NCBI GenBank assembly: GCA_964648855.1
Contig: CAZYLT010000001.1
Location: 342,299-406,298, forward strand
DNA length: 64,000 bases
Origin: an uncultured archaeon
GTDB lineage: Archaea > Asgardarchaeota > Thorarchaeia > Thorarchaeales > Thorarchaeaceae
Direction of reading: 5' to 3'
Below the pieces are notes generated by a model, which was given only the letters and a program-made list of their open reading frames with translations, was not told the DNA's origin and did not search any database. Below, piece by piece: positions 4,561 through 57,086 of the stretch (its first letter is position 1; every line of letters begins with the position of its first letter). A program made the translations under genes and the position numbers.

Positions 4561-4638
4561 TGAATCTCACCGCCGAATCTGGGCTAATCACATAAATGGT
4601 TTGAGTTTCAGGTTAATTGTTTATTGGGCGTTTCAAAA

Positions 4639-4646
4639 GTATAAAA
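4639..4646 (+). promoter_or_regulatory. Archaeal TATA box (GTATAAAA) with upstream A-rich BRE-like segment. A GAGGAG Shine-Dalgarno sits at 4677-4682, 8 nt before ATG 4691.
   Basis: The TATA box lies about 48 nt upstream of the radical-SAM gene ATG, and the purine-rich SD is correctly spaced. Both seen directly in sequence. Confidence 0.35.
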
Positions 4647-4690
4647 AGAGAGTCTAAATCCTCAGAGAGCACGTCAGAGGAGTATTGGCA

Positions 4691-6806: not shown

Positions 6807-6810
6807 TAGC

Positions 6811-9478: not shown

Positions 9479-9526
9479 TAGCAAGAGATATAGTTGCCAA
9501 TCGCACACATTCTTTTTGTGTCCACT

Positions 9527-22708: not shown

Positions 22709-23299
22709 TCAGGTAGGCAGATGCAGAGCACCCACATCAGACGCGGATTGAATCCAAAAACAGACTCGAACAAGTACTTCCTCAAGAAAGCGAGGCCGGT
22801 CACTTGGCTTGGCATCCTTCGGCCACCGATTACGTCTGTACTCGTCGAACTTCTGGAATGTTCGCCCGTATTTGGTGGTCATCGGTATCTCGACGTAGCG
22901 ATCACATACTGTCGTGAGGGCACGGATAAGAGGCGCATATTCAAACTTGATCCGTAATAACCACTTCGTGATGGCACGGAAGAATGCGCGGTCATCGGTG
23001 CCTTCCCACGGAATATCCATCATCCCTTCGCGATCTTCACCACGAACCCTCTGGCTGTTGAAGTCGCAGTCGCTGCTGTGAGTGCAACGAGCTCTCACAA
23101 ACACCTTTTTGTCGGTAAACCACAGAACTACTCTATGGTCCCCCTTTTTCTGAAGAAGCTCTTTATGGTCGCCGGCAGGAAAGATCAACTCTATCGTTCC
23201 CGGGTCTTTGAATTTGAAATCCTTCTTGAAGTATAATTGCATGGCCCAGGTGATAGGAGGGATAGTATTTACTGGATAGAGCTCGCTTCGGTCAGTCAT
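22709..23299 (-). CDS. Hypothetical protein (196 aa), co-oriented and immediately downstream of the Rab-like GTPase
   Basis: ATG start, no recognisable motifs. Cys/His-containing segment RARCTHSSDCDFNSQ. 110-bp spacer to the GTPase gene. Confidence 0.5.
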   Translation of the reverse strand: MTDRSELYPVNTIPPITWAMQLYFKKDFKFKDPGTIELIFPAGDHKELLQKKGDHRVVLWFTDKKVFVRARCTHSSDCDFNSQRVRGEDREGMMDIPWEGTDDRAFFRAITKWLLRIKFEYAPLIRALTTVCDRYVEIPMTTKYGRTFQKFDEYRRNRWPKDAKPSDRPRFLEEVLVRVCFWIQSASDVGALHLPT

Positions 23300-23408: not shown

Positions 23409-23951
23409 TTATTCGCTTGAGCGTCTAGTACTAACGAGTGTCTTTCCAAGATTCTCGAAGATGTCAACGATACCCTCGCCCGTCTTTGCAGATGACTCCA
23501 CGTAGGGCATGCCGTGTGCATCAGCGAATTCCCTGCCCTCCTTTGGCTCAACCACACGGTCAGGCAAGTCCGTCTTGTTTGCAACTAGCACCAAGGGAAT
23601 CTTTTTCTTAATCGCCTTTTCCAATTCATTGAGCCACTCATCAAGCAGAAGGAATGTTCGGCGTCGGGTGACATCGAATACGAGCACGCCGCCGCTTGAA
23701 CCTCTATAGTACATTGGTCTCAAAATCTGAAAGCGGCTCTGCCCCGCCACGTCCCAGATTTGCAGCTTCACAGTCAGGTTTTCACGGCTCTCACGTATAT
23801 CGATATTCTTGACAGCGAACTGAGAGCCTATCGTTGTCTTGTAATCGGTACGGAAGAAGCCATGAGAGAAGCGAGTGACGATTGCAGTTTTTCCTACTGC
23901 ACCCTCTCCGAGAATGACCACTTTAAACAGGTAATCGTACGTACTGCTCAT
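23409..23951 (-). CDS. Small GTPase of the Ras superfamily (Rab/Arf-like, eukaryote-type)
   Basis: G1 GEGAVGKT, G2 YKTTIGSQF (switch I Thr), G3 WDVAGQSRF (DxxGQ), G4 VANKTDL (NKxD) and G5 ESSAKTGEG (SAK). ~180 aa from the ATG at 23951. Confidence 0.85.
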   Translation of the reverse strand: MSSTYDYLFKVVILGEGAVGKTAIVTRFSHGFFRTDYKTTIGSQFAVKNIDIRESRENLTVKLQIWDVAGQSRFQILRPMYYRGSSGGVLVFDVTRRRTFLLLDEWLNELEKAIKKKIPLVLVANKTDLPDRVVEPKEGREFADAHGMPYVESSAKTGEGIVDIFENLGKTLVSTRRSSE

Positions 23952-23996
23952 CAGATTCAATTCCGACTCTTGTTTTGAGTGAAACGGTTGGGCTCA

Positions 23997-28885: not shown

Positions 28886-30604
28886 GTGACCAAGAGAAGC
28901 ATTACACAGGCATACTTGGACTATATTTGGAAGTCCAAACACGAGGAGTTGGCATCTGAACTCTACAACGACCCACCTATTTTGATGAACGACTTGAGAA
29001 AGCGCGCAGTCAATTTGAGAAAGACGTATGCTGAGCAAGACTGGCATACAGATGATAGGACTGAGAGATTGCAGAGGGCGTTGACAAGGATTAACCGTGA
29101 GCTAGGTTGTCTAAGTCCGAAAGTCAAGAAAAGCATTGAGAAACTACATGAGGGCGCTGTTGAGGCAGCTCATCAAAGCGTTGTATTAGGCGGCCCTTGC
29201 TATATTCTGAACAAGGCCATCACAGCAGAAAGATTGGCGGTCCTGAACTCGACCGAGCAGACATCTCTTGTCCCATTTTATTGTATTGCTGATTATGATA
29301 TAGTTCAGAGTGAGTTGACCCATACGAGAACGCCCTTGATGGGACCAAGTGGAAATATAGTGAGCATACCGGTTCCTGATGAATACGAGTTCTCACCTGT
29401 GAGTGTTGTGCCTTTACCCGAATATCATTGGTATGAGGAAGCGGAGGAGAGTATTAGAACGGGGTATAGCCCATTGTTCAAAGTACTTGAAGGAAATACA
29501 CGAAAGCTCTTTGACGAAAGGCTTGAATATGCACTTTCCATAACCAGACAAGCATTTCTTAACTCCGAAACTCTGGGGGAATGGGCACAAAGGATTATTG
29601 CAAGGATTGTGAACATTGAAGGAAACCTAGGACTACCTCTAGTTCCAGCTTCTGACGATGAGATACGAAAACTATGGGCGCTTGGCATGGAATTTCTTCT
29701 CTCCAAAGAGATACGAGAGAATTTCGTTCAGATGTACGGTCAAGCCACGAAAAGAATTCAGAATAACGGGTTTGAGCCAGGTGCAGGAGGAAGGGATAGC
29801 GCGTATGTCCCATTCTTCTATGAATGCCAAACAGAATCATGTAATCGGGCTAGAACAGAGCTGTTCTATGAATTGGATGGGTCGAAAGCATTACTCAGAG
29901 GAGAATGTCCTCTTTGCAACGAAAAAATCCAATTAGAAGTCGATGCGGAAACTCCAGATCTATCAGACCAAGCTACGTTTCTATCACCCAGAGTTGATTC
30001 TCGACAATTTGCAGTCGATTCCTCGATCCCTATCATAGCTCATGCGGGAGGGCCGGGAGAGACTGCGTATTATGCGCAAGTCATACCGATTGCAAGAAAA
30101 TTGAAGATACCATTTCCTATGTTTGTGAAATACCCTCGTGTCTTTTTCAATACCCCATGGAGCGAAGATATGGCTAACCAGCTAAAGACAAGCGAGATTC
30201 CCGTGCTTCACAGAGGTGAGATGTTTCGGGCCATGGGACAAGTTACTCGAAATAGAAACAAAGAGAACTATGACGAGATGAATGGGGCAATCCAGGATCT
30301 TGCAGGAATCATTTGGACGACACATGATGAGCTGTTAGAATCTTTGCATAAACTTGAGAAGGAGATTGAGGAAACCGAGGAGCATGTAGAGGAAGACAGA
30401 CTAGAGCTGAAATTCAAAATTGAAACCTATCTGTCTTGGGCATATGGTCGGTATGCAAAGGGAAAGAATGCACAGGAGTCATCTTGGTCATGGATTGAAT
30501 GGGTACTAAATGCGGGACTTGGTGATTTATTTGGACCGTACGAGCGGGCCTATATGCAACAAATGAAGAATGGAGCAACGCTTTTTGTAAATTTCATGGT
30601 ATGA
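28886..30604 (+). CDS. Large conserved protein, candidate BshC-like enzyme (third gene of a bacillithiol-type pathway), with an internal Cys4 zinc-ribbon
   Basis: 572 aa with a GTG start 12 nt after the bshA-like stop. Segments SVVLGGPCYIL, VPFYCIADYD and IIAHAGGPGETAYYAQV resemble conserved blocks of BshC (YllA) as I recall them (VVGGQQAGLLTGP / IPIFWVAGEDHD / IAGPGE). The memory-based match is uncertain. Zinc-ribbon is CQTESC ... CPLC. The C-terminal ~130 aa are coiled-coil-like. Confidence 0.45.
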   Translation: MTKRSITQAYLDYIWKSKHEELASELYNDPPILMNDLRKRAVNLRKTYAEQDWHTDDRTERLQRALTRINRELGCLSPKVKKSIEKLHEGAVEAAHQSVVLGGPCYILNKAITAERLAVLNSTEQTSLVPFYCIADYDIVQSELTHTRTPLMGPSGNIVSIPVPDEYEFSPVSVVPLPEYHWYEEAEESIRTGYSPLFKVLEGNTRKLFDERLEYALSITRQAFLNSETLGEWAQRIIARIVNIEGNLGLPLVPASDDEIRKLWALGMEFLLSKEIRENFVQMYGQATKRIQNNGFEPGAGGRDSAYVPFFYECQTESCNRARTELFYELDGSKALLRGECPLCNEKIQLEVDAETPDLSDQATFLSPRVDSRQFAVDSSIPIIAHAGGPGETAYYAQVIPIARKLKIPFPMFVKYPRVFFNTPWSEDMANQLKTSEIPVLHRGEMFRAMGQVTRNRNKENYDEMNGAIQDLAGIIWTTHDELLESLHKLEKEIEETEEHVEEDRLELKFKIETYLSWAYGRYAKGKNAQESSWSWIEWVLNAGLGDLFGPYERAYMQQMKNGATLFVNFMV

Positions 30605-32873: not shown

Positions 32874-32973
32874 GGCGAAAAACTCCTAAATACCTTACAT
32901 CTCCTTGGTCGAGGACACTTATATTAAATGCGGAATCCAGAACAATAGCGTGATTGAGTTGAGTCCGGACTGG

Positions 32974-34002
32974 ATGGAAACACGATTGGTTGTTGTCGCC
33001 ACTGCGATTCTGGGGTCAATCTATTTCTTCCTACTCATGTTCATCTTACCATTCACGTTGAGTCCGTTTACCGACCCGTTGCACAACGAACTATTTCACC
33101 ATGTAGTGACTCCACTCGTTTTCTCTGCACCCTGGCTCGGGATAATCTACAACTCTAGATACAGATTTGCCAACACTATTCACCATATGCATGACTCAAC
33201 TAGTTCCGTACCCTTAAGATGGAGAGTATTCTATGGCACAAATGCGGCATTTGTTCTTGCCTTTTTCGTACTGCCAATTGTAACTCCACCGCTTGCAATT
33301 CTTGGGGGGTTGTATGTTGCCGGAGTGGTATTCTATCGCGTCGGGGTTGGAAAACTTGGCGGAGGTAGATTGGCATCAGCCTTGGCGGTTCTGATTGCTA
33401 TTGCCTTATGTATTCTTCCTACAATTATACTACTCCAGTTCATACCAGAGTATGTGTTGGTTTGGCAGGAAATACTAGCAGCATGGAGCTCTTTTTGGGT
33501 GAAAGTCGTATACGGGATCGCCCAATGTCTAGTGAATGCTCTAAGCTTCGGGGCACCGGTCTACTTCCTCTATTTCGCAGCCCAAGAATACGACAAGGGA
33601 GTCTACGGGGAGATATATACGGCAACGCCTACAAAATGGATTTGGATTGTAGAGTCCATCATTTTCTTGATTTTCATCGCCCTATATTTGCCACCGGTTC
33701 CAACTCCATTGGGAGCAATACCATTCCTAGACCGGTCGGACCTCTTTAATCAGTACATAAACTGGATATCTCTCGGAGTAGTTGTTATTCTCACTCTGGT
33801 GAAAAAATTGCTTGGAGTTGAGAATGACACCACATTGGGAGGCCCCTCTAACATTATCATCGTTGGATTGTTTCTGGTAGTGGAGCTCTTCTTCAAAACG
33901 GATTTACTCATTGTCACTCTGATAATCTGGCTGGCATTCATGTTATACGCTACCGTTTTCTTAGCGAACTTCCTCAGAGCATCACCACGGGAGATGTACT
34001 AG
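32974..34002 (+). CDS. Polytopic integral membrane protein of unknown function
   Basis: ~10 predicted TM helices, no motifs. Track TTG at 32905; first ATG at 32974. Confidence 0.5.
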   Translation: METRLVVVATAILGSIYFFLLMFILPFTLSPFTDPLHNELFHHVVTPLVFSAPWLGIIYNSRYRFANTIHHMHDSTSSVPLRWRVFYGTNAAFVLAFFVLPIVTPPLAILGGLYVAGVVFYRVGVGKLGGGRLASALAVLIAIALCILPTIILLQFIPEYVLVWQEILAAWSSFWVKVVYGIAQCLVNALSFGAPVYFLYFAAQEYDKGVYGEIYTATPTKWIWIVESIIFLIFIALYLPPVPTPLGAIPFLDRSDLFNQYINWISLGVVVILTLVKKLLGVENDTTLGGPSNIIIVGLFLVVELFFKTDLLIVTLIIWLAFMLYATVFLANFLRASPREMY

Positions 34003-34919: not shown

Positions 34920-35324
34920 TTAAATATCCAATATCTCGAGTTTCTCTTCCAGTCTGATAATAGGCAAATGTACAATCATTGGTTCAGATTCAAAGGCATC
35001 AACAAACTTCAGAGATTCTTTTGGACGCGCCTTGTATGCCAAAAAATTGCCTTCTGGTGGTTCGTCGGCCTCATAGTAAATCCACAGAGGCATACCATAG
35101 TATTCGTAGTAACCGTGGTTGGAAATCATTGTACCATAAACGTGCTTCCCCTTGTGTTCGAAGTACAGCATACTTGCAGGACGGTCTCGTTGAGACCATG
35201 ATACAAGCATTCTAGCCAAATCGGTCATGGAAGATAGTTTTAGGTTCACAGGAGGGCGAATATCTTCTTTGCTCATTTTGACACCAGTTTCAATGCAAAA
35301 TTCAGTCCTTATAAGGCCATTCAT
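34920..35324 (-). CDS. Hypothetical protein (134 aa) immediately downstream of the HerA-like ATPase
   Basis: No motifs recognised (KGKHVYGTMISNHGYYEYYGMPLWIYY). 9-nt spacer to the upstream ATPase gene, so probably an operon. Confidence 0.45.
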   Translation of the reverse strand: MNGLIRTEFCIETGVKMSKEDIRPPVNLKLSSMTDLARMLVSWSQRDRPASMLYFEHKGKHVYGTMISNHGYYEYYGMPLWIYYEADEPPEGNFLAYKARPKESLKFVDAFESEPMIVHLPIIRLEEKLEILDI

Positions 35325-35333
35325 GCAGGGCAG

Positions 35334-37502
35334 CTAGGATAAGGATCGAAGTCGGTTTGCGAGATTCATGATTGCCTTCTTCTCAGGACTGACCAATGCA
35401 ATAGCTACACATGCATATGATGGAGTTGTTGCTGCAGATATTGAAGCACGAGCGTTCATTGACCCCATGAGGATATAGGAAAACGAATCGTCTTGGGGAG
35501 CCCTAATGATATCGAATCCCGCAGTTTTGAGTATAGACACTACACGCTCTAGCAAGGTCTTCGCATCAAGGTGTTTACTAACAATAGCAATGGAGTCTCT
35601 TTCACGAATATCTGAACTGAATAGAAAGTCGTGCGAAGGGGGTGCATACAGAACCTTTCTCATCATGGCCTTCCTGAGAACTGAGGGAGAGAGATTTTTG
35701 AACGTACGAATTGACAATTTCAGCGAGCTCAAATCATAGCCAGGCAGTTCCTTTGTCAGATCGAATGGGCTATCCTCTAGTAGTGCCTTAGATTCTTCTT
35801 CATGGACATGAGAAGGCTGTACATGAGGTGGCTCTTCATCTGTTATAGTGTACTCTTGTAGTCGCTCCTCAAAGAGCCTCTCCACATAATTCTTCATCCA
35901 ATCATCAAGAACTGCCCAATCCTCTTTGCTCAATTTCAGAGGCGGCCGAGGAATATCAGGCAACTCAGGTGCTTCAGCAGATTCTTCTTCAACAGCCATT
36001 TCATCATCTACTTGGTCAGGGGCCAATGCCGCAGCTTGAAAGATTCCAGAGAGACGATCTGCGCCACCATGTTGTGACATTCTAGGACGCACCTGCATGA
36101 TGAAGGCACGTTTATTCTCTGTGCTTTGATCAAATACCAAAGCAACACCTCTCGGTAGGCTGCTGATGAATAACTTGTCCTTGAACTGATTTGGCATAAA
36201 TGCGGGAGCTCTCTGATGCAATGCTCGAATGTCATTGTCGTGGGATAGCGAATGAGAGAGCACGATATCAGCCTGAGAAATTGCTTCATCAGCTACGGCA
36301 GAGGGTTGTTGTGTACAGAGTATCAGACTACATCCGAATCGTCGACCAAGCTTGGCATATCCAACAATAGCATCCTTCGCAGGTGTATTTCCCGTCCGTG
36401 GAACAAGGGTGTGAGCCTCGTCGATAATGAGCCAAGTGGGAGGCAGTTCTTCTCTGGCACTAGTACCTTCCTCAGTCCAAGCCATGCGATAGGTGAGAAC
36501 CTGTCGAGAGAGCATGTTGGTAAGAATTGCAAGCACTGCTTCTGCATTAGCCCCGAGGGGAGCCACATCGATGATTGATATTTGCCCTCCAATAGCGAGG
36601 TCCTGAGCACTTGTCCCTCCAGTGTGAAATACACCGAGTCGATCCGCTCTACGGAGCCTTTGGATAAGTGCGGTCTTAGATGATGTTTGGTATAGCTCAT
36701 CAATTGCCGGATTGTTTTCTATGCAGTTGATCATGTCAGCTATACTGAAATCACGTTTCCGTTTCACTTGCTCGCCCGAGTCAAGAGTGTAACCTTTTCT
36801 CATACTCTCCAAGACGTCCCCAATTAGATTAGTCATTGAGGTACTGAGCTGTCCCCCTCGTTCTAATACGTAGCCCCATTCACTCGCCGTAAGTTCCCTA
36901 GGACTTATTGCAAGAGGCAGTAGTCGAGCTTTCTTTTTCACTTCATCAGGCAAAGACAAGTATGTCTTTCTAGGAATGTATACGGACACAGGGAAACTTC
37001 TTGCCTCTAGCCCCCACTTTTTCAGCAGCTGTTTTTGGTCAGCATTTTCTTCAACCATCTGTCGAAAGACATCGACCGTATCAACGATGACCCCCGCAAC
37101 TTGTATCTCATTCCGTTCCATTGAGAGAGCCAATGCCTCTGCAAAAGTACCAAGGGTATAGCTCTTGCCAGAACCTCTTTTGCCAGCAACAAAGACCACG
37201 TGCGGGCTCATGAGGTCCATGAGCACAGGCACACCAAATAGAGAGGATGAATCATCATCTGCTACCTCTGAAACCGCCCCAATCAACCCCAAGCCCGAAG
37301 AGCCAAACTTTTCATGAAACTTCGCAGAACGTCCAAGAATGACTCCATTATCAAGGTCGAGATGGAGGTCTAAGTCATGACCGACCCTTGGTGTGAAATC
37401 TACATCCGACGGTGAAAGAACTCGCTCTAATTCGAGCGGCTTTTTGTAATCTTCGCCGGCTTCAGCGTTGTCAGGCATATCGCTCGGATGTTCGCTATCC
37501 AT
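35334..37502 (-). CDS. HerA/FtsK-superfamily P-loop ATPase (DUF87/AAA_10-like) with N- and C-terminal extensions
   Basis: Walker A VFVAGKRGSGKSYTLG, Walker B WLIIDEAH, and CTQQPS (sensor/arginine-finger region typical of HerA/VirB4-like ATPases). ~722 aa from the ATG at 37502. The track ATG at 37574 would overlap divergent trmI. Confidence 0.65.
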   Translation of the reverse strand: MDSEHPSDMPDNAEAGEDYKKPLELERVLSPSDVDFTPRVGHDLDLHLDLDNGVILGRSAKFHEKFGSSGLGLIGAVSEVADDDSSSLFGVPVLMDLMSPHVVFVAGKRGSGKSYTLGTFAEALALSMERNEIQVAGVIVDTVDVFRQMVEENADQKQLLKKWGLEARSFPVSVYIPRKTYLSLPDEVKKKARLLPLAISPRELTASEWGYVLERGGQLSTSMTNLIGDVLESMRKGYTLDSGEQVKRKRDFSIADMINCIENNPAIDELYQTSSKTALIQRLRRADRLGVFHTGGTSAQDLAIGGQISIIDVAPLGANAEAVLAILTNMLSRQVLTYRMAWTEEGTSAREELPPTWLIIDEAHTLVPRTGNTPAKDAIVGYAKLGRRFGCSLILCTQQPSAVADEAISQADIVLSHSLSHDNDIRALHQRAPAFMPNQFKDKLFISSLPRGVALVFDQSTENKRAFIMQVRPRMSQHGGADRLSGIFQAAALAPDQVDDEMAVEEESAEAPELPDIPRPPLKLSKEDWAVLDDWMKNYVERLFEERLQEYTITDEEPPHVQPSHVHEEESKALLEDSPFDLTKELPGYDLSSLKLSIRTFKNLSPSVLRKAMMRKVLYAPPSHDFLFSSDIRERDSIAIVSKHLDAKTLLERVVSILKTAGFDIIRAPQDDSFSYILMGSMNARASISAATTPSYACVAIALVSPEKKAIMNLANRLRSLS

Positions 37503-37625
37503 TGTACTCCCTCTATGGCTCGTTTTTTCGTAGCCGAATAAAGGTTTGTAGTGGCAGGCTATAATCTGAATCATATCATCGTACCGTTAGCAAGACTCAA
37601 AACATCCTTTCCCGAATCATCACGT

Positions 37626-38852: not shown

Positions 38853-40643
38853 ATGGTTCCGATGATTTCAATATCACCTGAACTGGCAATCGTTTTCATG
38901 ATCCTAGCCGTGACAATCGGAATGTTCATCAAAGGTGACTGGCGGTATGACATCACCGCTCTATTTGCCTTGTTGGCTGTTGCAATCACGGGAATAGTTC
39001 CACTCAATGAGATTTTCTTGGGTTTCGGTCACCCTGCAGTGATAACGGTTGCAGCTGTGTTAGTTATGAGCCGCGGCCTCATTAACTCAGGATTTGTCGA
39101 TTTGATTGCGAAATGGACGTCCCGCGTTGGCGATGGCACAATAGTGCAAATTCTGACACTGTCCGGGCTGGTGATTGTGCTTTCGGCATTCATGAACAAT
39201 GTGGGTGCCCTAGCACTTTTGATGCCCGTAGCGATTCGTATGGCTAAACGAACCGGCAAGTCCCCTTCGCTTCTTCTCATGCCCCTTGCCTTTGGATCCA
39301 TGCTTGGAGGTCTGATAACATTGATTGGCACTCCTCCAAACATTATAATATCAACCTTCAGGGCTCGGAACGGCTCTGCACCATTTCTTATGTTTGACTT
39401 CGCGCCAGTCGGATTGGGAGTGGCAATAGCTGGAGCTCTGTTCCTCTCTCTGGTGGGTTGGCGGTTGGTTCCTTATCGTGAGGGAAAGGCAGATGATTCT
39501 GTTTTCAAAGTTGAAGATTACATCGCTGAAGTCTTTGTACCTGAGGGCTCCAAGATGGATGGAAAACGAATATACCACGTTGAATCCTCAGCGGAGGCTG
39601 ATGTGTCAGTAATAGCTCTTGTCCGAAAGGGTGAACGAATTAGCGCCCCTTCTAGATTGAGGGGATTGAAAGCGGATGATAGCCTGATTGTCAGAGGTGA
39701 GCCTGCGGACCTGAAGCTTCTAATTGATGCCACTGGGCTTCAAGCGGTTGAACCCAAAAAGGACGACGAGAGTCTTCTGGAGTCAGACGAACTAGATGTT
39801 GTGGAAGCCGTTGTAACAACAAATTCGTCTCTAGACGGTAGAACTGCACGAGGACTTCACTTACGCAGTCGCTTCGGGGTAATCCTCCTTGCTGTTTCAC
39901 GTCAGGGTCGGCGTCTGAGAGCTCGAATCGGCGACATCCGATTGCGTACGGGCGACGTATTGCTACTGCAGGGACCCAAAGAGGAATTGCCCGAAACGCT
40001 AACTGAGATCGGTTGCCTGCCGCTAGCTGAGCGCGACATAAGACTTGGAAAAAAGTCTAAGGTTATTCCGGCGGTTGTGATTTTTGGAATCGGACTCGCA
40101 CTCTCCGCCTTGGGTGTTTTGCCGGTCCAAGTTTCTTTTGTGCTTGCTGCTGTAGCCATGGTTGCTGTTGGGCTCGTGTCGCCGGATGAGGCCTACAAGA
40201 GTATCGATTGGTCTGTAATCGTTCTGCTGGGAGCCATGATCGGTGTTGGAAAAGCACTAGAATTTAGCGGTGGTGCTGAGCTGATAGCAAGTGCATTAGT
40301 TGGAATGGGAAGCACGTTCCCGCCCATTGCGTTTCTTGCAATGATATTGGTCGTTACGATGCTTCTATCGGCAGCAATCGACAACATATCCGCAGCAGTT
40401 CTCATAGCTCCCATAGCGATGAACATGGCAGTCGCACTGGGCACGTCATTGGATCCGTTCCTGATGGCCGTTGCTGTTGGCGCGTCAACTCCCTTTCTTA
40501 CCCCTATAGGCCACCAGTCCAGTACCTTGGTAATGGGACCTGGAGGGTATAGGTTTGCAGACTATGCACGTGCCGGTCTACCATTACAGATCCTTGTAAT
40601 CCTCTTGGCAATCCCCTTGATTGCATTCTTTTGGCATTTCTAG
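38853..40643 (+). CDS. Anion/cation permease of the ArsB/NhaD/DASS (SLC13-like) superfamily with two central TrkA-C regulatory domains
   Basis: The N- and C-terminal halves are each ~6 TM helices with re-entrant GS-rich loops (GSMLGG, GTPPN). Between them are two ~70-aa soluble repeats (FKVEDYIAEVFVPEGSKMDGKRI... and ESDELDVVEAVVTTNSSLDGRTAR...) typical of TrkA_C. Confidence 0.75.
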   Translation: MVPMISISPELAIVFMILAVTIGMFIKGDWRYDITALFALLAVAITGIVPLNEIFLGFGHPAVITVAAVLVMSRGLINSGFVDLIAKWTSRVGDGTIVQILTLSGLVIVLSAFMNNVGALALLMPVAIRMAKRTGKSPSLLLMPLAFGSMLGGLITLIGTPPNIIISTFRARNGSAPFLMFDFAPVGLGVAIAGALFLSLVGWRLVPYREGKADDSVFKVEDYIAEVFVPEGSKMDGKRIYHVESSAEADVSVIALVRKGERISAPSRLRGLKADDSLIVRGEPADLKLLIDATGLQAVEPKKDDESLLESDELDVVEAVVTTNSSLDGRTARGLHLRSRFGVILLAVSRQGRRLRARIGDIRLRTGDVLLLQGPKEELPETLTEIGCLPLAERDIRLGKKSKVIPAVVIFGIGLALSALGVLPVQVSFVLAAVAMVAVGLVSPDEAYKSIDWSVIVLLGAMIGVGKALEFSGGAELIASALVGMGSTFPPIAFLAMILVVTMLLSAAIDNISAAVLIAPIAMNMAVALGTSLDPFLMAVAVGASTPFLTPIGHQSSTLVMGPGGYRFADYARAGLPLQILVILLAIPLIAFFWHF

Positions 40644-41126: not shown

Positions 41127-41160
41127 TGTCGATTGTTGTCTATTATTGTCGATTGTTGTC
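41127..41160. repeat. Tandem direct repeat: TGTCGATTGTTGTC, then TATTAT spacer, then TGTCGATTGTTGTC (20-bp period); candidate operator
   Basis: Seen directly. Preceded by TATA-like TTTATAAC at ~41099-41106. It overlaps the 5' end of the small ORF (TTG 41146 / ATG 41173). Confidence 0.5.
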
Positions 41161-41172
41161 GGTGAACTCGGG

Positions 41173-41547
41173 ATGACGTATAGCCATAAGCGCAAGAAAT
41201 GCGCCAAAGAAACTAAGGAAATTCTTGAAAATGTAATCAGAGGCCATAAGGCAAAGTACGCCTTTATCAATGAGGGACAAACTGTAGTTGTTTCAAATCC
41301 CATAGAGAGGGTAGCGAAAGACGCAGGGAAAATCAACGTACTAGAAACAAAACCTGAACATGGTTTGGAGAAAGAAGTGGAGATTGAGGACAAATCAAAA
41401 TCAGAACCCTCTGAAACGGAAGGCATGGAAAACTATCAGCCTAATCGAGAAGTTGGAGACCCCAGATCGGAGATTAAGAAGGTCGTACAACGGGATCGGA
41501 AAAGACGAAACTATGTCAACCTTAGGGATGAATACGAGAGTAAGTAG
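41173..41547 (+). CDS. Small Lys/Glu-rich hypothetical protein
   Basis: 124 aa from the ATG at 41173 (track TTG at 41146). Charged and low-complexity in the C-terminal half, no motifs. Confidence 0.35.
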   Translation: MTYSHKRKKCAKETKEILENVIRGHKAKYAFINEGQTVVVSNPIERVAKDAGKINVLETKPEHGLEKEVEIEDKSKSEPSETEGMENYQPNREVGDPRSEIKKVVQRDRKRRNYVNLRDEYESK

Positions 41548-41556
41548 GTGAGATTG

Positions 41557-41937
41557 ATGGCAAAACCATCAGAAGTGGACGTTCTAAAAGACGAGATAAG
41601 AGAACTGAAAGAAACCGTCAGCACTCTGACCAAGACAGTCAATGAATTGTCTTCAAAGATACGAGTTCCAGAAAAGAGAGATGCAAAGTCAGTTGCACCT
41701 GGGCACTATAGGATTTTCAACGAGGGCGAAAGCGTCATTATGGAAGATGCCAGTTGGAATCGACTGTTGACTCTATTGGAGAATGCACAGAAGGGACTAA
41801 CCACTTCTGAATTGGCCAGGAAGTGGGGTAAGTCCAGGTCTAGGACAAGTGAAGTACTGAACCAGCTTGCTGATGATGGACATCTAGTAAAGTACCGCGA
41901 CGGAAGACGAATGAAATTTAGATCGCTAGATGAATGA
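41557..41937 (+). CDS. Winged-helix transcriptional regulator with N-terminal coiled-coil
   Basis: The N-terminal heptad helix is EVDVLKDEIRELKETVSTLTKTVNELSSKI. The C-terminal wHTH is LTTSELARKWGKSRSRTSEVLNQLADDGHLVKYRDGRRMKFRS. ATG at 41557; the track start is GTG at 41548. Confidence 0.5.
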   Translation: MAKPSEVDVLKDEIRELKETVSTLTKTVNELSSKIRVPEKRDAKSVAPGHYRIFNEGESVIMEDASWNRLLTLLENAQKGLTTSELARKWGKSRSRTSEVLNQLADDGHLVKYRDGRRMKFRSLDE

Positions 41938-42065
41938 TTACTGCTTTTACTGGTGTGATTATCTCACTCTTCTCTATCTTGATGTGTTTTGAGTATAGTC
42001 AGGACTATTCTTAAGTAGAATACAGACAAATGTAGCTTCAGTTAATAGGAACTGAGGTTGTCCCA

Positions 42066-44384
42066 TTGAGCAATACGATTTCAAAAGGGAAGTCAAATAC
42101 GGATTCAAAGGAAATCGAGGTCTATACCAAGCACCTCTTTGAATTGAATAAGACATCCCAAGAAGCCGTCTTTGATTTTGCACTCCACGATATTGATGAC
42201 AAAGAAGGACTCGAAAAGAAACGGATTGCAATGCATGATGCATTTACTGAACTCTACAATGCCACTGCATCCCTCGGTGAAATAATAATGGGTCAGGACT
42301 TTGACATTGCGTACTTGAGAAATAGACTGCTGCAAGCCGAAGGGGAAGCTCGAGAACAGCTTGAAGAGGCCATGAAACAGCTTCAGGAACAAGTCCAAGA
42401 GAGTCTTTCCGAGATTTGGATGGCTAAAGTCATGGCTTGGTTGCATCAAGCCGCTGCTGCAAGTGGACCATTCGTAGAGAAAGAACATGCCGACAAGGTA
42501 GAGAACGCATCTGCAGTTCTTGCTTCGGTCTATACTATGCTCGAAAGACCATTTGTCGCAGTTCCTTCAAAGGTTGATGGAACCCAGAAACTGAGAAGGG
42601 TGGCGCTAGGATACAAGGCCTATAGCCTCCTGGAAGAGTCTGCAAAGAAGAACGAAGATGAGTTGGCAAGTGTCCTGGGAAAGAATAAGGCAGCAGAGGC
42701 AGAATTCTATGACGAGTTTCTCAATGAACTAATACAAGAAGAGAGCACATTCCGGCAGGCATTCAATCCATTTGATGAAATCATATGGAGAGATATCCTC
42801 AGCTCATTCATTTTCGAGCAGGCAACGGACCTCTACAATGAAGCATTGGCAGATTTGAAAAAGGCAAGAAAAGACAACGAATCCATCATCTCAAGGATAA
42901 CATCTTGGAAACATAATACAGCGGGACTTAGCGAAGTCTATCTCGCCATGACCTATGACGACATTGCTGATACTCAGCTGAGAGATGGTAACTTGGAGGA
43001 TGCTGCAAAGCTCTATCAATCATCATCTGATGCTTTTGCACGAGCTGAGAGTGTTTTCAACGAAGTCATAGCTCTGAGAAGAAATGCAGAACAATCCGGA
43101 AAGGACAAAGAACACAGGAAAGCCCAATCCCTCTTTTGTAAAGCCGAAACCTCTCTCAAAGTATTATCTGACCTTCTTGAAGTTGAGAACGTGGATGGAG
43201 CACAAGAAGTGCTGGGAGATATCGATAAGAATCTGAAAAAGGCAGAGAAGCTGGCTGGAACCAGAGAACTCATCTCAGCGATTAAGGAAGACCTCAGAAT
43301 TGTCTCGTATGTTGGGGGTCTCATGAAGAAGGAGGAGAGAAGGGCAAGAAGTATTGCTGAACAGATAGACTTCGCAAAGGACCTTAGAAAGACTGGGCTA
43401 ATACAAGACGTCAATAAATCCCTTGATGATGCAAGTAACCAGCTGGGGAAAGAACCATCTGATGCTCTCGACTCAATTCGTGAAGCACTGAACAGTCTCG
43501 GTATTCTCCTAAATCTTGACTCAGAAGATGAAGAGGTTACATTACTCAGAAATCGAACTCTGGCGTTACTCAACAATGCGAAATATGTAATCCAGTTCCA
43601 ATTGAGCTCACAACTCCAACATGGTGTGAAATTCATTATGTCTCGGATTTTGGAGAACCTTCATGCAGCTGATGCAGCAAAGTACTACAAGATACTAGGA
43701 AATGACGAGACCGCCAAAGAACTAACTGATTTGGGTAAGCTCGCTGTTGCAACAGCTTATGCCTCGGAGGCGCAAGTATTTGCACGGCAATCCGAGCAAT
43801 GGGCATTTCGGTCACAGATTGAGAGAGGAAATATGATTCAGAATATCGATGACGCTCTACTGGAATTGGATGATAGCAATGTAATTGAGAAGGGAGTCGA
43901 TGTTCATAATGAGGCAATTCTAAGAATAAGGCATGCCATTGCTTCATTCGATGCAGCCTCAGAAGCACTAGACAGCGTACAAGGAAAAGTAATCCGCAAG
44001 AAGAATAGCGTGGATGCCCAAGTGAAGCAATTGAAAGCAGTTGTGATGAAGTTTCAAGGCGATCTATCTCGACTACAAGGTGCTAGGAGCGATTTCATTG
44101 CTGAGTTTATGTCCAGGCAGGGTGAGAATACCAAGGCGCAAAGACATTATGATGATGCTAAGGACATGCTCAGAGAAGCGGTTGGCAATTATACCGTAGC
44201 AGCACAAGTGTTTCAAGAAGTAGGAGATGCACAGTCGGCGCAGAGTGTTGATAGACGGGCAAAAACAGCAGATTTGCTAGCACGAGGTATGTGGGACAAT
44301 AGACAACGTCTGAGTCGCGACCAAGACCCCCAGTACAAGAGCGATCAAGAGCTTGCAGCGCTCTACCTTGGTGGAACTGGCTAA
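42066..44384 (+). CDS. Large (772 aa) all-alpha coiled-coil / TPR-like repeat protein of unknown function
   Basis: Continuous helical heptad-like sequence, rich in E/K/A/L/Q, with no TM helix and no enzymatic motif. TTG start with a GAGGT SD 13 nt upstream. Confidence 0.55.
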   Translation: MSNTISKGKSNTDSKEIEVYTKHLFELNKTSQEAVFDFALHDIDDKEGLEKKRIAMHDAFTELYNATASLGEIIMGQDFDIAYLRNRLLQAEGEAREQLEEAMKQLQEQVQESLSEIWMAKVMAWLHQAAAASGPFVEKEHADKVENASAVLASVYTMLERPFVAVPSKVDGTQKLRRVALGYKAYSLLEESAKKNEDELASVLGKNKAAEAEFYDEFLNELIQEESTFRQAFNPFDEIIWRDILSSFIFEQATDLYNEALADLKKARKDNESIISRITSWKHNTAGLSEVYLAMTYDDIADTQLRDGNLEDAAKLYQSSSDAFARAESVFNEVIALRRNAEQSGKDKEHRKAQSLFCKAETSLKVLSDLLEVENVDGAQEVLGDIDKNLKKAEKLAGTRELISAIKEDLRIVSYVGGLMKKEERRARSIAEQIDFAKDLRKTGLIQDVNKSLDDASNQLGKEPSDALDSIREALNSLGILLNLDSEDEEVTLLRNRTLALLNNAKYVIQFQLSSQLQHGVKFIMSRILENLHAADAAKYYKILGNDETAKELTDLGKLAVATAYASEAQVFARQSEQWAFRSQIERGNMIQNIDDALLELDDSNVIEKGVDVHNEAILRIRHAIASFDAASEALDSVQGKVIRKKNSVDAQVKQLKAVVMKFQGDLSRLQGARSDFIAEFMSRQGENTKAQRHYDDAKDMLREAVGNYTVAAQVFQEVGDAQSAQSVDRRAKTADLLARGMWDNRQRLSRDQDPQYKSDQELAALYLGGTG

Positions 44385-53012: not shown

Positions 53013-53966
53013 TTGATGAAGGCCATAGTAACTGGCTGCGCAGGATTCATCGGTAGCCATCTTGCTGAGGAGTTATTGAGACGAGGGTATTCAGTTCTTG
53101 GGATAGATAACTTCAGAACAGGAACTAGGCAAAATATGGCATCATTTCAGGAAGATAGTCATTTCCACTTCTTAGAAGGGGATATAACCAACCTCGATAT
53201 TAGGGAGCAAATCAGTGGAGATTATGATTTTCTTTTTCATCTGGCTGCTGTTTCATCGGTAAGACTGTCATGCGAAGAACCTCTAAGTGTCCATGCAATA
53301 AACACCACAGGCACACTCATGATGCTTGAGCTTGCCAGATCGTGTGGAATGCCTCGCGTTGTGTTCAGTTCCAGTGCTGCAGTCTATGGAAAACCCAGTA
53401 CCTTGCCAGTAAGAGAAGAGGAGTCAACACATCCACTTAGCCCCTATGCGGCCTCCAAGTTATCAGCCGAGAACTACCTTGCAGCATACCAGGAAGCATA
53501 TCAGCTTGAAATGACAATCCTTCGATACTTCAATGTTTTTGGACCTAGACAAGCGTATTCAGAATACAGTGGCGTAATCTCAATATTTCTGAATCAAGCA
53601 ATAAAGGGTAAGCCATTGACGGTAGAGGGAGATGGAAAACAGACGCGCAGCTTCATCTATGTTGATGATGTCGTAGATGCAACGATGAGAGCAGCTGAAA
53701 AGAAAGAGGCTTTGGGAGAGGTTTTCAATATATCTGGCACCGAGAGAATCAGTATTCGAGAACTCGCCAGAACAATCGATGATATGGTCGCCAATATGAA
53801 TCTCGGAATTGTGCATGAACGCGCACGGCCGGGTGACATTAAGGATAGCATCGGATCCATAGGAAAAGCCCAGAATCTTCTCGGATTCAGGCCAACGAAG
53901 ACATTGAAAGACGGCTTATCCGACACCTTATCGTGGTACCGCGAGCAAGCGGAACAATATGACTAG
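53013..53966 (+). CDS. NAD-dependent nucleotide-sugar epimerase/dehydratase (extended SDR, UDP-GlcNAc/UDP-Glc 4-epimerase-like)
   Basis: GCAGFIGSH Rossmann motif, catalytic YAASK (YxxxK), 317 aa. Confidence 0.85.
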   Translation: MMKAIVTGCAGFIGSHLAEELLRRGYSVLGIDNFRTGTRQNMASFQEDSHFHFLEGDITNLDIREQISGDYDFLFHLAAVSSVRLSCEEPLSVHAINTTGTLMMLELARSCGMPRVVFSSSAAVYGKPSTLPVREEESTHPLSPYAASKLSAENYLAAYQEAYQLEMTILRYFNVFGPRQAYSEYSGVISIFLNQAIKGKPLTVEGDGKQTRSFIYVDDVVDATMRAAEKKEALGEVFNISGTERISIRELARTIDDMVANMNLGIVHERARPGDIKDSIGSIGKAQNLLGFRPTKTLKDGLSDTLSWYREQAEQYD

Positions 53967-56900: not shown

Positions 56901-56974
56901 TAGAGTGTAACGATAGTGGCAGCGAGAACAGCAATGGTAATCAGTGTAGCAAATATCAGCCGGGCATGTTTCAT
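53963..56974 (-). CDS. Large (~1000 aa) polytopic membrane protein with a big extracytoplasmic domain (UPF0182-like architecture?)
   Basis: The N-terminal ~330 aa contain 8-9 TM helices. A long coiled segment follows (LRSKIQQLEENLARLQGELISVRSEYESG), then one more TM and a ~600-aa soluble domain. The family name is a guess from the architecture. Track TTG 56989; ATG 56974. Confidence 0.55.
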   Translation of the reverse strand: MKHARLIFATLITIAVLAATIVTLYGWLLGQSIYQSTYSSKAGVDYWATWTLENNVFYASILLAVLSVITLPQRSTFISFVSALSQTGPVVKRLKLSHAIVWRLIQFGCLFLFYISSGGFSVTGQNVAFLMMLTGDGSIALSQQDISTLFSLPFYPGTPSDAIIQLMPALEAYQLYLGLIATFIVFTAGRIGLSIAVDYLAPRRDSYAIISKALFIVSLIIVLEILSVPMWTANAGTWMSYLALIIGLAAALIGAFAFLIMRLHAGDAYQRLRSKIQQLEENLARLQGELISVRSEYESGSLSMEEYRRRVSMLMEDRSNIGNELRRLKLERLLPLGTSPRKFGLLAGILIVMVVVLPVIQGLYYGIQMQGDKYIEWKFNYETRKEIAITNWAAGVTDIEQLKIDDLISNATPESEVDALTSVRQWDEEASSLRMKNQIGTNWMQIADSDIVYLNGHEYWVAPLTFDYATISTSFINHRLIYTHTEGMVVLDAYSGDIIEGDSLVALFNRTRPVTMYYGEGIGFRGHVFPNVPSVQEIGSTSFQGEADYMLRGFESFYYMLTQGPEAWSFLGQEMDILIERNVLSRVQNILLQGLRVDNDPYIVVAPNGSLSYAVSIYADYRLATGYAHEKYLRFIGVALVDIENGDMQFYSQPSGDSSFFIDKTFYDHYDWRAPPEWLQRQMKWPEDLYERQLEVAYIYHVTDGFLWKGGNDFHESPEDSDTRYIVIRIGGVDRFVATHNSEFLNSAGRNLAGIYMVGCGNRDFGKLQFYSASSQGFSTLLGPNAAVQAFETSDEVRTQLQLWGEYRIGNRLIYHLGGDLFFVIPVFLVVETSIDRVIQKLGGVGLVDARTGERVTLGDNVIEAYYKMFGLLNRTAIEEGEVGIENAAFNPITIESGELSRLSMILRNNDNIEHNLTVDITVAAGNFSVFWHGTEVEPTISPSNSTFSLNIGTVGPGDYYGTNPSVTAYLPDGIVLAQYLVVITLRSEEGIEDQLSLMLTVT

Positions 56975-57086
56975 TCTTAATCCTCGCAATCGTGTAGCTT
57001 AAGGAGAAATAGAGCGAGAACATATGAGCGTTGTCTATAGGACACTATCACTTAGAACATACGAATGCAGAATCATCGAGAAAAGG

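Follow-up and report, generated by a model that had tools for sequence, protein, structure and literature searches.

A HerA/FtsK-type ATPase with domain-sharing relatives inside Asgard ESCRT gene clusters forms a conserved gene pair with a small α/β protein in Thorarchaeia

Introduction

P-loop ATPases of the HerA clade are described from DNA repair, where the HerA translocase (PDB 4d2i, 7f6d, 9x1l) is linked to NurA, Mre11 and Rad50, and from anti-phage systems such as Sir2-HerA, DUF4297-HerA and TdpAB (PDB 8j4u, 9c1m, 8xau, 8wet), which pair the ATPase with a second gene. In archaea with eukaryote-like ESCRT systems, the question at stake is how the handling of DNA is coordinated with membrane scission. 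Among the FtsK/SpoIIIE translocases, FtsK is anchored in the membrane by its N-terminus, recognises KOPS sites through a γ domain and works with FtsZ divisomes. ESCRT-III of Lokiarchaeota binds DNA in vitro, and it has been speculated that DNA segregation and constriction were coupled by ancestral ESCRTs (bioRxiv 10.1101/2021.11.29.470303). A motor for this has yet to be named.

Here we analyse a thorarchaeal gene pair consisting of a HerA-clade ATPase and a small protein, which lies in a 64-kb stretch of DNA (hereafter the window). The original prediction, made from the sequence of the window, had described an orphan HerA/FtsK-like ATPase with long terminal extensions and a tightly linked partner, and had proposed an uncharacterised defence or DNA-processing module.

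Results

The ATPase gene and its product

The predicted 722-aa HerA-like ATPase is real: its ORF spans 35334-37574 on the minus strand and encodes 746 aa from the first, upstream ATG and 722 aa from Met25 (Table 1; residues are numbered in the 746-aa frame throughout). Met25 (37502) is most likely the start codon, since the majority of the homologues begin there and the motifs GAGGGAG and TTTATT lie upstream of it. The Walker A, Walker B and CTQQPS motifs that had been recognised are all present and invariant across 24 homologues.

Table 1. Features of the locus in window coordinates, with the ESCRT-context loci of related ATPases in the last line
Feature	Position	Strand	Remarks
HerA-clade P-loop ATPase gene	35334..37502	-	722 aa counted from Met25
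Conserved ATPase core, residues ~62-515	36030..37391	-	near-invariant alignment block; common to the broad archaeal DUF87 family
Walker A GKRGSGKS, residues 131-138	37161..37184	-	invariant in 24 sequences
Walker B LIIDEAH, residues 382-388	36411..36431	-	D385, E386, A387 and H388 invariant; aligns with solved HerA Walker B
GRRFG, residues 410-414	36333..36347	-	invariant; GRKYG in the aligned HerA chains 9c1m and 8xau
CTQQPS, residues 420-425	36300..36317	-	equivalent of HerA SQRPS carrying Q in place of R, as aligned with 9c1m and 8xau
Acidic linker of variable length, residues 516-541	35952..36029	-	gapped acidic alignment columns; pLDDT <50
Pro-rich segment and helix LPxVPRPPLKLSKEDWxVLDxWM..., residues 542-575	35850..35951	-	conserved; predicted helix 550-571
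C-terminal α/β domain, residues ~620-746	35337..35717	-	common to ESCRT-linked Asgard ATPases
CTTATAAG box, TATA-like	35308..35315	-	in the ATPase-partner spacer, ~40 nt before the partner start codon
GGTG, Shine-Dalgarno-like	35282..35285	-	6-9 nt before the partner start codon; conserved in the Thor alignment
Partner gene, 118 aa (start at Met17 in the 134-aa ORF)	34920..35276	-	α/β protein without family assignment
ESCRT-context loci			L160-163 Promethearchaeota; L164 Lokiarchaeota; L165 Helarchaeota; also L166, L167-169, L081 and L089

The protein belongs to a large family: 230 cluster representatives match positions ~35-480 of its profile at E<1e-30. Pfam DUF87 (PF01935) is passed marginally, with 27.3 bits against a gathering cut-off of 23.2, and the same model is found in the precomputed records of nearly all homologues. 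The fold is of the HerA/VirB4 type; the best 50 Foldseek matches are all HerA-type ATPases, TdpA among them, and solved HerA chains align to the protein from Walker B to the sensor region. Scores against the curated NCBIfam models are far lower than their cut-offs: 33.6 bits for NF040937 (cut-off 800) and 21.7 for NF040819 (cut-off 970), both repair-HerA equivalogs, and 44.8 and 36.9 for the HerA_antiphage models (cut-offs 800 and 850). The CedD and VirB4 models yield 17.1 and 11.3 bits, against cut-offs of 600 and 643.

The GRRFG motif (residues 410-414) occupies the position of the GRKxG motif of HerA, which, following the Sulfolobus HerA structure paper, we take to be that of the arginine finger. 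The (S/T)QRP motif expected after the sensor strand is not found in the Thor ATPase, which reads TQQP; this variant also occurs in relatives of the Loki-, Hel- and Promethearchaeota type, while the relatives fused to DUF835 retain TQRP. The ATPase of this locus keeps every HerA-clade catalytic motif together with the HerA-clade fold. By analogy with that clade, it would form a hexameric ring that translocates dsDNA.

The flanks of the core differ in part from what had been expected. Of the proposed ~120-aa N-terminal extension, ~35 variable residues stand as such, whereas residues ~62-130 belong to the conserved core of the family. Only ~50 conserved residues precede Walker A, and the model of this region, where an N-terminal HAS barrel would lie, has a pLDDT <50. 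The 'ACT-like' character of the C-terminal tail was not borne out. The Pro-rich segment within this tail has invariant P542-P545, L548, S549, D552, W553, L556, D557 and W559, and its LPxVPRPP stretch may resemble MIM2-type Vps4-binding motifs.

The partner gene and the spacer

The second ORF (34920-35324, minus strand) lies downstream of the ATPase gene on the same strand. As the homologues are 118-121 aa long and start at the equivalent of Met17 in the window, we place the start of the partner there; this shortens the predicted 134-aa product to 118 aa and widens the supposed tight linkage of 9 nt to a gap of 57 nt. The basic layout, an ATPase gene followed by that of a small protein of no known family, was borne out. 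The partner has no match among the PADLOC, Pfam or NCBIfam models, and neither a model match nor a fold of the nuclease, Sir2, TIR or other defence kind that had been suspected. It is an α/β protein without the RNase-H-like fold of NurA.

The spacer between the two genes has a median length of 73 nt across loci. A TATA-like CTTATAAG box and a GGTG are seen in 45/45 listed Thor sequences, and position counts over all loci that can be anchored at the start codon support both elements. The box is probably the partner's own promoter, and its conservation together with that of GGTG suggests that the partner is expressed without translational coupling to the ATPase. In Jordarchaeia the partner gene is flanked by a radical-SAM gene and the membrane-protein gene, and no ATPase is encoded within 8 kb of it, which suggests that the protein may function independently. 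Comparisons of the partner by HMM and hhalign with the long ATPase relatives, with the 300-344-aa proteins encoded downstream of some of these, and with ESCRT proteins were all negative, and we rejected the idea that it is fused or related to those components.

Conservation and gene neighbourhood

We collected 74 ATPase loci from species-representative genomes, all of which bear either an Asgard MAG label, for the most part Thorarchaeota, or the label 'uncultured archaeon'. Both genes are covered in 65 thorarchaeal loci, and in every one of these they are adjacent with identical synteny. They are embedded in a recurring block, with p772, wH129, p133 and trm61 on one side of the pair and a NUDIX gene, a membrane-protein gene, pyrF and an aminotransferase gene on the other. 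The other junctions of this block tolerate insertions, whereas that between ATPase and partner has none in the 65 loci; adjacency and co-orientation are also kept in a deep lineage at 38-44 % identity. Where the pair is more diverged, so are the flanking housekeeping genes, their identities being correlated at r 0.72-0.81. The ATPase gene belongs to the core, is inherited vertically and has a fixed housekeeping neighbourhood, and the two genes are a conserved Thorarchaeota core gene pair rather than a phage-defence island. A search of viral contigs yielded no relatives, and we rejected an origin from a virus or mobile element.

A Pfam scan of 30 further ORFs of the window (6 at E<=1e-5 only) detected no NurA, Mre11, Rad50 or conjugation genes; the original prediction that none of these adjoins the ATPase was thus correct. 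The wH129 neighbour matches EAP30 in 21/22 members, below the cut-off and no better than it matches MarR or TrmB, so that it is at most a possible ESCRT-II protein. Searches with Loki and Thor queries found no homologues of Snf7, Vps4, Vps25 or EAP30 in the 64-kb window or in the loci L001-L079 (each with ±8 kb). Thor AB_25 also carries a Thor-type ATPase (L039), on a contig other than that of its ESCRT genes. According to Hatano et al. Supplementary Data 1, the locus tags of the latter run consecutively, so that no ATPase gene could fit between them.

Relatives inside ESCRT gene clusters

An HMM of the C-terminal domain of the Thor ATPase matches longer Asgard ATPases (E 1e-7 to 1e-11), and hhalign aligns the α/β domains of the two groups with a probability of 97.6 % and E 3e-12. 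The genes of these longer ATPases directly adjoin ESCRT genes in MAGs labelled Lokiarchaeota, Helarchaeota and Promethearchaeota and in several further lineages. The usual order is Vps4 | ESCRT-IIIB → ATPase → ESCRT-IIIA, the flanking Snf7 genes sorting into ESCRT-IIIB and ESCRT-IIIA groups. The ESCRT-cluster DUF87 ATPases are a group defined in this analysis. We found no ESCRT-associated ATPase of this kind in the main text of Makarova et al. 2024 and Hatano et al. 2022, nor in that of Liu et al. 2020, Lu et al. 2020 and Nachmias et al. 2021; it may appear unlabelled in the figures or supplements of those papers.

The N-terminal extension of the Loki-type ATPases has weak α/α-toroid-like matches; we considered an MIT domain for this extension and discarded it, as no MIT match was obtained. 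One ESCRT-linked member has an N-terminus with a NucS-like nuclease fold at a sub-threshold score, and related archaeal DUF87 proteins bear SAP and winged-helix domains; both observations, like the DNA binding of Loki ESCRT-III, speak for DNA as the probable substrate. The core of the Thor ATPase shares 36-42 % identity with every member of a large archaeal clade. A bootstrapped neighbour-joining tree of the core places Thor as a long-branch sister to that whole clade, in a position that it leaves unresolved. What links the Thor ATPase specifically to the ESCRT-linked group is solely the C-terminal domain.

Discussion

The reading that we favour, with a probability of about 0.45, is that HerA/FtsK-type ring ATPases have a branch specific to Asgard archaea, whose Thorarchaeia version, a putative ESCRT-associated translocase, is encoded at this locus and joined by a lineage-restricted 118-aa α/β protein. 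The family would comprise hexameric, ATP-driven dsDNA translocases acting alongside ESCRT-III, where they may clear membrane necks of DNA, or move DNA there, in the course of scission, like FtsK at the bacterial septum; alternatively, they may serve to fill vesicles with DNA. In the Thor lineage, the ~250-aa N-terminal helical domain would have been lost and the gene would have departed from the ESCRT cluster, to settle divergently from trm61 and upstream of the gene for the small protein. The latter, probably expressed from its own promoter, could be an accessory subunit or an adaptor, perhaps to the polytopic membrane protein whose gene lies close by. Given that no ESCRT gene lies in the window or within 8 kb of the Thor loci, the tie of the Thor pair itself to ESCRT is purely an extrapolation. 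The unplaced core, the conserved promoter of the partner and its solo occurrence in Jordarchaeia are points against the favoured reading, as are the replacement by Q of the arginine in the QRP of HerA and the short, poorly modelled HAS-barrel region.

A bolder proposal, which we regard as doubtful, is that the family is an overlooked DNA-handling motor of the Asgard ESCRT machinery and that in Thor the N-terminal domain has been functionally replaced by the 118-aa adaptor. An FtsK-like pump between ESCRT-IIIB and ESCRT-IIIA might then couple chromosome clearance or segregation, or the loading of vesicles with DNA, to scission by ESCRT-III and Vps4; in Thorarchaeia the ATPase would have turned into a stand-alone module, with the adaptor representing a new fold. 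The looser notion of a DNA-processing module, which had been offered beside defence, is plausible, and it gains an unexpected context from the relatives that sit inside the ESCRT cluster in other Asgard classes.

Rather unlikely, in our estimate, is a functional independence of the two genes, with the 118-aa protein being an independent Asgard protein that stays next to the ATPase solely because gene order is inherited. Its own conserved TATA-like promoter in the ~70-nt spacer, the Jordarchaeia copy without an adjacent ATPase and the ESCRT-linked relatives without a partner homologue nearby would all agree with this, and adjacency is little informative because the entire region is syntenic. 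Yet adjacency and co-orientation persist in 65/65 loci while other junctions of the block accept insertions, and they persist in the deep lineage at 38-44 % identity too. We consider it improbable that the ATPase is the housekeeping HerA for the resection of DSB ends, with NurA, Mre11 and Rad50 encoded elsewhere or replaced and the partner serving as NurA substitute or regulator. The repair HerAs of Sulfolobus, Deinococcus and Thermococcus are indeed among the best structural matches, the gene is part of the vertically inherited core, and core-only relatives of ~436 aa on metagenome contigs adjoin genes that resemble, by eye, RFC, RPA and DnaG. However, NurA, Mre11 and Rad50 are absent among the scanned ORFs of the window, the repair equivalogs reach 22-34 bits where 800-970 are required, the N-terminal barrel region is cut short and the α/β partner lacks the NurA fold; moreover, the closest domain-sharing relatives lie in ESCRT clusters and not in repair operons.

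Still less probable is a cytoplasmic motor for DNA uptake, export or secretion of the Ced/Ted, VirB4 or VirD4-like kind, in which the partner would couple the ATPase to the 365-aa polytopic membrane protein. This conserved protein has no family assignment, its gene is on the strand opposite to the ATPase pair, and in many loci the NUDIX gene or insertions of 2-6 kb stand between it and the partner; the scanned neighbours include no genes of the pilin, CedA-like or T4SS kind, and CedD reaches 17 bits against a cut-off of 600. Least credible of all is the anti-phage module of the original prediction, that is, a HerA-type scaffold that serves a small sensor or effector, comparable to Sir2-HerA, DUF4297-HerA or a component of MADS. 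The highest library scores do come from PADLOC models (mad8 with E 5e-18 over the whole core, HerA models with 1e-17 to 1e-7), the nearest solved sequences are those of defence HerAs, and the two-gene layout superficially resembles defence pairs. Nevertheless, the HerA matches are confined to a generic portion, from Walker B to the sensor region, the antiphage equivalog stays at 44.8 bits against 800, and taken together the PADLOC, NCBIfam and Pfam libraries gave the ATPase only generic HerA similarity and the partner nothing, on which grounds we rejected a defence annotation. The fixed synteny (65/65) and the divergence in step with housekeeping neighbours (r 0.72-0.81) likewise fail to support defence, and the suggested check for a variable island came out negative: among the ORFs scanned around the pair there is no such island, integrase or other defence gene. 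No effector such as Sir2 or a DUF4297 nuclease lies beside the pair, the partner itself has no match or fold of this sort, and as to other mad genes, such as a methyltransferase, the neighbours scanned with Pfam include no defence-type gene.

The Thor pair matters because domain-sharing relatives of its ATPase in other Asgard archaea lie between both ESCRT-III scission genes. A HerA/FtsK-family gene in that position in several Asgard classes is a concrete, testable candidate for a motor, and the Thor locus illustrates how such a gene may be uncoupled, trimmed and re-partnered within one class. It also calls for caution in annotation: a HerA gene paired with a small gene is not automatically a defence system.

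Comparison with known systems

The Thor ATPase differs from the repair translocase HerA in having no linkage to NurA, Mre11 or Rad50, in showing a short region before Walker A instead of a full HAS barrel, and in reading TQQPS where HerA has SQRPS. Beyond HerA, it has an added acidic linker, a helix and a C-terminal α/β domain, and it falls far below the cut-offs of the curated HerA models. Among solved structures, the anti-phage HerAs come closest in sequence (E 1e-9 over ~125 residues) and, like the Thor locus, pair the ATPase with a second gene. In contrast to them, the Thor locus shows no effector domain, patchy distribution or island, and its partner is unrelated to Sir2, DUF4297 or TdpB. 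Compared to FtsK/SpoIIIE, the Thor ATPase is devoid of a membrane anchor, and the gene association is with ESCRT-III and Vps4, in sister lineages only.

The ESCRT-cluster ATPases (P0247, P0248, P0249, P0250, P0252, P0281, P0301 and P0262) have a core ~40 % identical to that of the Thor ATPase and, with the exception of P0262, share its TQQP. Most of them begin with the ~250-aa helical domain, for which P0262 has a 151-aa nuclease-like N-terminus, whereas the Thor proteins have no such domain and ~60 residues ahead of the core. The ESCRT-cluster genes often adjoin those for Vps4, ESCRT-I/II and ubiquitin, while the Thor gene adjoins none of ESCRT. Downstream of some of the ESCRT-cluster ATPases a 300-344-aa all-α protein is encoded; the 118-aa partner, in turn, is absent beside these ATPases and present beside that of Thor.

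A syntenic gene pair of Thorarchaeia

Scanning a single genome of each species recovered 74 loci for the HerA/FtsK-like ATPase, the majority labelled Thorarchaeota; the few labelled otherwise (Promethearchaeota, one 'Hermodarchaeota', 'uncultured archaeon') show the same synteny at ~59% identity. The partner gene is directly downstream of the ATPase gene in every sufficiently long locus, within a conserved block of the form p772 ← wH129 ← p133 ← trm61; ATPase → partner; ← NUDIX ← 365-aa membrane protein, continuing as pyrF → aminotransferase → ← BshC-like. Insertions of 2-6 kb separate the partner and membrane-protein genes in several loci, while none interrupts the ATPase-partner junction in the Thor loci compared. 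A deep lineage (L065, L078/79) has the same arrangement, with 44% (ATPase) and 38% (partner) identity. Across loci, the sequence identity of the ATPase rises and falls with that of the aminotransferase, trm61 and pyrF (r 0.72-0.81), the other genes of the window belong to metabolism or housekeeping (FTHFS, PGM, glycosyltransferase, P-type ATPase, FGGY kinase, LarA, epimerase, deformylase, SDR), and the viral contigs searched hold no relatives. Taken together, the fixed synteny, co-divergence, housekeeping surroundings and lack of viral relatives point to a vertically inherited core gene of Thorarchaeia and speak against the defence module envisaged in the original prediction.

The two ORFs of that prediction are real and lie on the minus strand, in a region of flat GC content (0.44-0.47), but homologue comparison shifts both start codons. 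Most ATPase homologues start at the window's Met25 (MDSEHP), giving 722 aa in the homologue P0002, and GAGGGAG and TTTATT lie directly upstream of this codon. The partner homologues are 118-121 aa long, instead of the predicted 134, and start at the window's Met17 (MSKEDIRPP). The supposedly tight 9-nt spacing thereby becomes a true spacer of 57 nt; in 65 related loci it spans 28-106 nt (median 73, with a single outlier of 268 nt). A CTTATAAG box ~40 nt, and a GGTG ~8 nt, before the partner start codon are present in 45/45 aligned spacers inspected, and position counts over all anchorable loci agree with both. Judging from sequence, the first is probably a TATA box of archaeal type and the second a ribosome-binding site.

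Coordinates and gene orders at the window and at homologous loci (L numbers) in other genomes and metagenomes
Feature	Locus	Coordinates	Strand	Details
ATPase ORF	window	35334-37574	-	746 aa from first ATG
Partner ORF as first drawn	window	34920-35324	-	134 aa; 9 nt from ATPase ORF
Revised spacer	window	35277-35333		57 nt
Membrane protein	window	32905-34002	+	365 aa, polytopic, no family assignment; near partner gene
p133, wH129, p772	window	41146-44384	+	strand of trm61, divergent from ATPase, nearly all Thor loci
CitMHS/SLC13-type permease	window	38853-40643	+	two TrkA-C domains; between trm61 and p133
BshC-like protein	window	28886-30604	+	572 aa; bacillithiol-synthesis BshC Rossmann-like domain, E 2e-19
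Ras/Roc/Arf-type small GTPase	window	23409-23960	-	183 aa; Ras E 1e-48
ORF adjoining small GTPase	window	22709-23299		196 aa; no family match
1008-aa protein	window	53963-56989	-	sole match UPF0182, C-terminal, E 7e-20
Partner homologue, radical-SAM gene	L075-L077, Jordarchaeia	6693-8366		divergent; TIGR04337, 292 bits
Membrane-protein homologue	L076, Jordarchaeia	8630-9982	-	450 aa; 30% identity
ESCRT-linked ATPase region	L160-163, three Promethearchaeota-labelled MAGs and one public-sequencing-run contig	L160:7344-11667		Vps28, EAP30/Vps22, Vps25, Vps4; Snf7 → ATPase (874 aa) → 344-aa protein
ESCRT-linked ATPase region	L164, Lokiarchaeota	6346-10555		ubiquitin, RING, UEV-Vps23, EAP30, Vps25, Vps4; Snf7 → ATPase (925 aa) → Snf7
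ESCRT-linked ATPase region	L165, Helarchaeota	5231-9395		E1, E2, ubiquitin, RING, Vps23, Vps4; Snf7 → ATPase (923 aa) → Snf7
ESCRT-linked ATPase region	L166	3681-7863		Snf7 → ATPase (948 aa) → Snf7
ESCRT-linked ATPase region	L167	1762-7280		Snf7 → ATPase (1017 aa) → 333-aa protein → Snf7
ESCRT-linked ATPase region	L168	6001-10876		ATPase (881 aa) → 304-aa protein → Snf7
ESCRT-linked ATPase region	L169	1388-6714		Vps4; Snf7-like, 191-aa protein, Vps25 → ATPase (763 aa)
ESCRT-linked ATPase region	L081, metagenome	3628-9524		Vps4, Snf7, ATPase, Snf7
ESCRT-linked ATPase	L089, metagenome			ATPase, Snf7
All-α proteins (300-344 aa)	L160, L167, L168	L160:10633-11667, L167:5494-6495, L168:8848-9762		directly after ESCRT-linked ATPase, three lineages
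P0262 N-terminus	L169	4423-4875		~150 aa; takes helical domain's place

Among the neighbors, wH129 combines a coiled coil with a winged helix and has a weak EAP30/Vps36 match in 21/22 members, alongside MarR and TrmB, while p772 (59-66% conserved) has a weak TPR match; a tie to ESCRT-II-like winged-helix proteins is possible. The permease has a match in 0/43 related loci that reach far enough upstream to be compared (L001, the closest locus, stops short on this side) and hence resembles a lineage-specific insertion within that block. The BshC-like protein, surprising for an archaeon, is conserved among the Thor loci with 50-60% identity, and the small GTPase is a typical Asgard eukaryotic-signature protein.

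Domain architecture of the ATPase

Alignment of 24 homologues shows that the Walker A (GKRGSGKS), Walker B (LIIDEAH), GRRFG and CTQQPS motifs are invariant, and residues ~73-515 (746-aa frame) are close to invariant throughout. Pfam DUF87 scores slightly over its cut-off, with weak HerA_C, FtsK and Zot matches; the NCBIfam HerA, VirB4 and CedD equivalogs reach 11-45 bits (cut-offs roughly 570-970), and the best scores are those of the PADLOC models for mad8 (5e-18) and, below it, HerA. Solved HerA chains are alignable only between Walker B and the sensor region; the GRKxG arginine of HerA is retained, whereas its SQRPS is replaced by TQQPS. Library and structure searches thus concur in placing the protein in the HerA clade, as originally proposed. 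As a whole, its AlphaFold model is of poor quality (pLDDT 56), with good stretches at a helical insertion (residues ~200-320) and at the C-terminal domain (residues ~620-746). Four elements follow the core: an acidic linker that varies in length, the conserved segment LPxVPRPPLKLSKEDWxVLDxWM, another variable linker and an α/β domain.

Relatives within ESCRT gene clusters

A profile search against 1.84 billion cluster representatives returned 1956 relatives (230 at E<1e-30) of 400-1650 aa, which have the core (profile positions ~35-480) in common. Those with a taxonomic label belong to Promethearchaeota/Lokiarchaeota, Helarchaeota, Theionarchaea, Thermoplasmatota, Aenigmarchaeota, Nanoarchaeia and Diapherotrites, and some carry DUF835, SAP or TrmB/MarR winged-helix domains. 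Core-only relatives of ~436 aa occur in metagenome loci (L101-L159), where genes identified by eye as RFC (small subunit), RPA, DnaG, Trm5-type and HtpX-like repeatedly adjoin them.

An HMM of the C-terminal 200 residues of the Thor protein matches one subset only: P0247/P0392 (labelled Promethearchaeota), P0249 (Lokiarchaeota), P0250 (Helarchaeota), P0248, P0252, P0257, P0281, P0301 and P0262. Profile-profile comparison (probability 97.6%, E 3e-12, 117 columns) shows homology between this C-terminal domain and the one in Asgard ATPases encoded inside ESCRT clusters. In Loki-, Hel- and other Asgard lineages, the genes for these ATPases of 760-1020 aa directly adjoin ESCRT genes and usually lie between those for ESCRT-IIIB and ESCRT-IIIA: by sequence match, the upstream Snf7 resembles Loki ESCRT-IIIB and the downstream one Loki ESCRT-IIIA. 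Several of the loci are beside Vps4 and some include ESCRT-I/II and ubiquitin-system genes; for instance, L160-163 continue beyond the 344-aa protein with a small GTPase, RING, ubiquitin, E2 and E1.

Unlike the Thor proteins, most ESCRT-linked ATPases have a ~250-aa N-terminal helical domain, with weak α/α-toroid-like matches only; its replacement in P0262 gives sub-threshold matches to PD-(D/E)xK nuclease families (NucS_C E 9e-4, UPF0102, SfsA). The all-α proteins encoded after three of these ATPases are related to each other (phmmer 1e-66 and 1e-7), have no Pfam match and are unrelated to the Thor partner.

Functional implications

We propose that the Thor gene may be an orthologue of the ESCRT-linked ATPase that was relocated and N-terminally trimmed, and that the family could have an FtsK-like or vesicle-loading role together with ESCRT-III. 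The substrate would be DNA, given precedent in the superfamily, the fusion of relatives to SAP, winged-helix and nuclease domains, and the DNA binding of Loki ESCRT-III (bioRxiv 10.1101/2021.11.29.470303). This interpretation has its weak points. The core tree leaves the relationship between the Thor and ESCRT-linked ATPases without resolution, and the Thor ATPase lacks ESCRT linkage: queries with Loki and Thor ESCRT proteins detected no ESCRT gene across the 64-kb window or at any Thor locus. According to Supplementary Data 1 of Hatano et al., 2022 (PMC9192718), the ESCRT genes of Thor AB_25 are numbered consecutively by locus tag (08990-09030), with the second ESCRT-III gene (07240) elsewhere. 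The Thor-type ATPase is on another contig of this MAG (L039). A non-systematic comparison of the assemblies gathered found none with both ATPase types. Separately, ThorAB25_09000, labelled ESCRT3A in that Supplementary Data 1, groups by sequence with Loki proteins of ESCRT3B type, whereas ThorAB25_07240, which carries the label ESCRT3B, groups with Loki proteins of ESCRT3A type; the labels seem to be swapped between the two phyla in this dataset.

The 118-aa partner may serve the Thor ATPase as an accessory subunit. It has 125 homologues, with 62-97% identity within Thorarchaeota-labelled genomes, falling to ~50% in Jordarchaeia and to 36-38% in a deep lineage. Weak points here are its own predicted promoter and its occurrence in Jordarchaeia apart from the ATPase: there, its gene is flanked by an AmmeMemoRadiSam radical-SAM gene on one side and a homologue of the membrane-protein gene on the other, with trm61 adjoining, and no ATPase is found within 8 kb. 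The radical-SAM gene occupies the place that the ATPase has in Thorarchaeia, and the membrane protein is near the partner gene in Thorarchaeia, the deep lineage and Jordarchaeia alike.

No mention of a HerA, DUF87, FtsK or P-loop ATPase near Asgard ESCRT genes was found in Makarova et al., 2024 (PMC11188069), in Hatano et al., 2022 (PMC9192718), where only genes with diagnostic Ub/ESCRT domains are given colour, in Liu et al., 2020, Lu et al., 2020 and Nachmias et al., 2021, or by term searches across a limited literature set; this does not prove novelty. The locus is of value mainly because it hints at a HerA-like, ESCRT-associated motor in Asgard archaea, and the Thor locus itself is a new variant inside a known superfamily.
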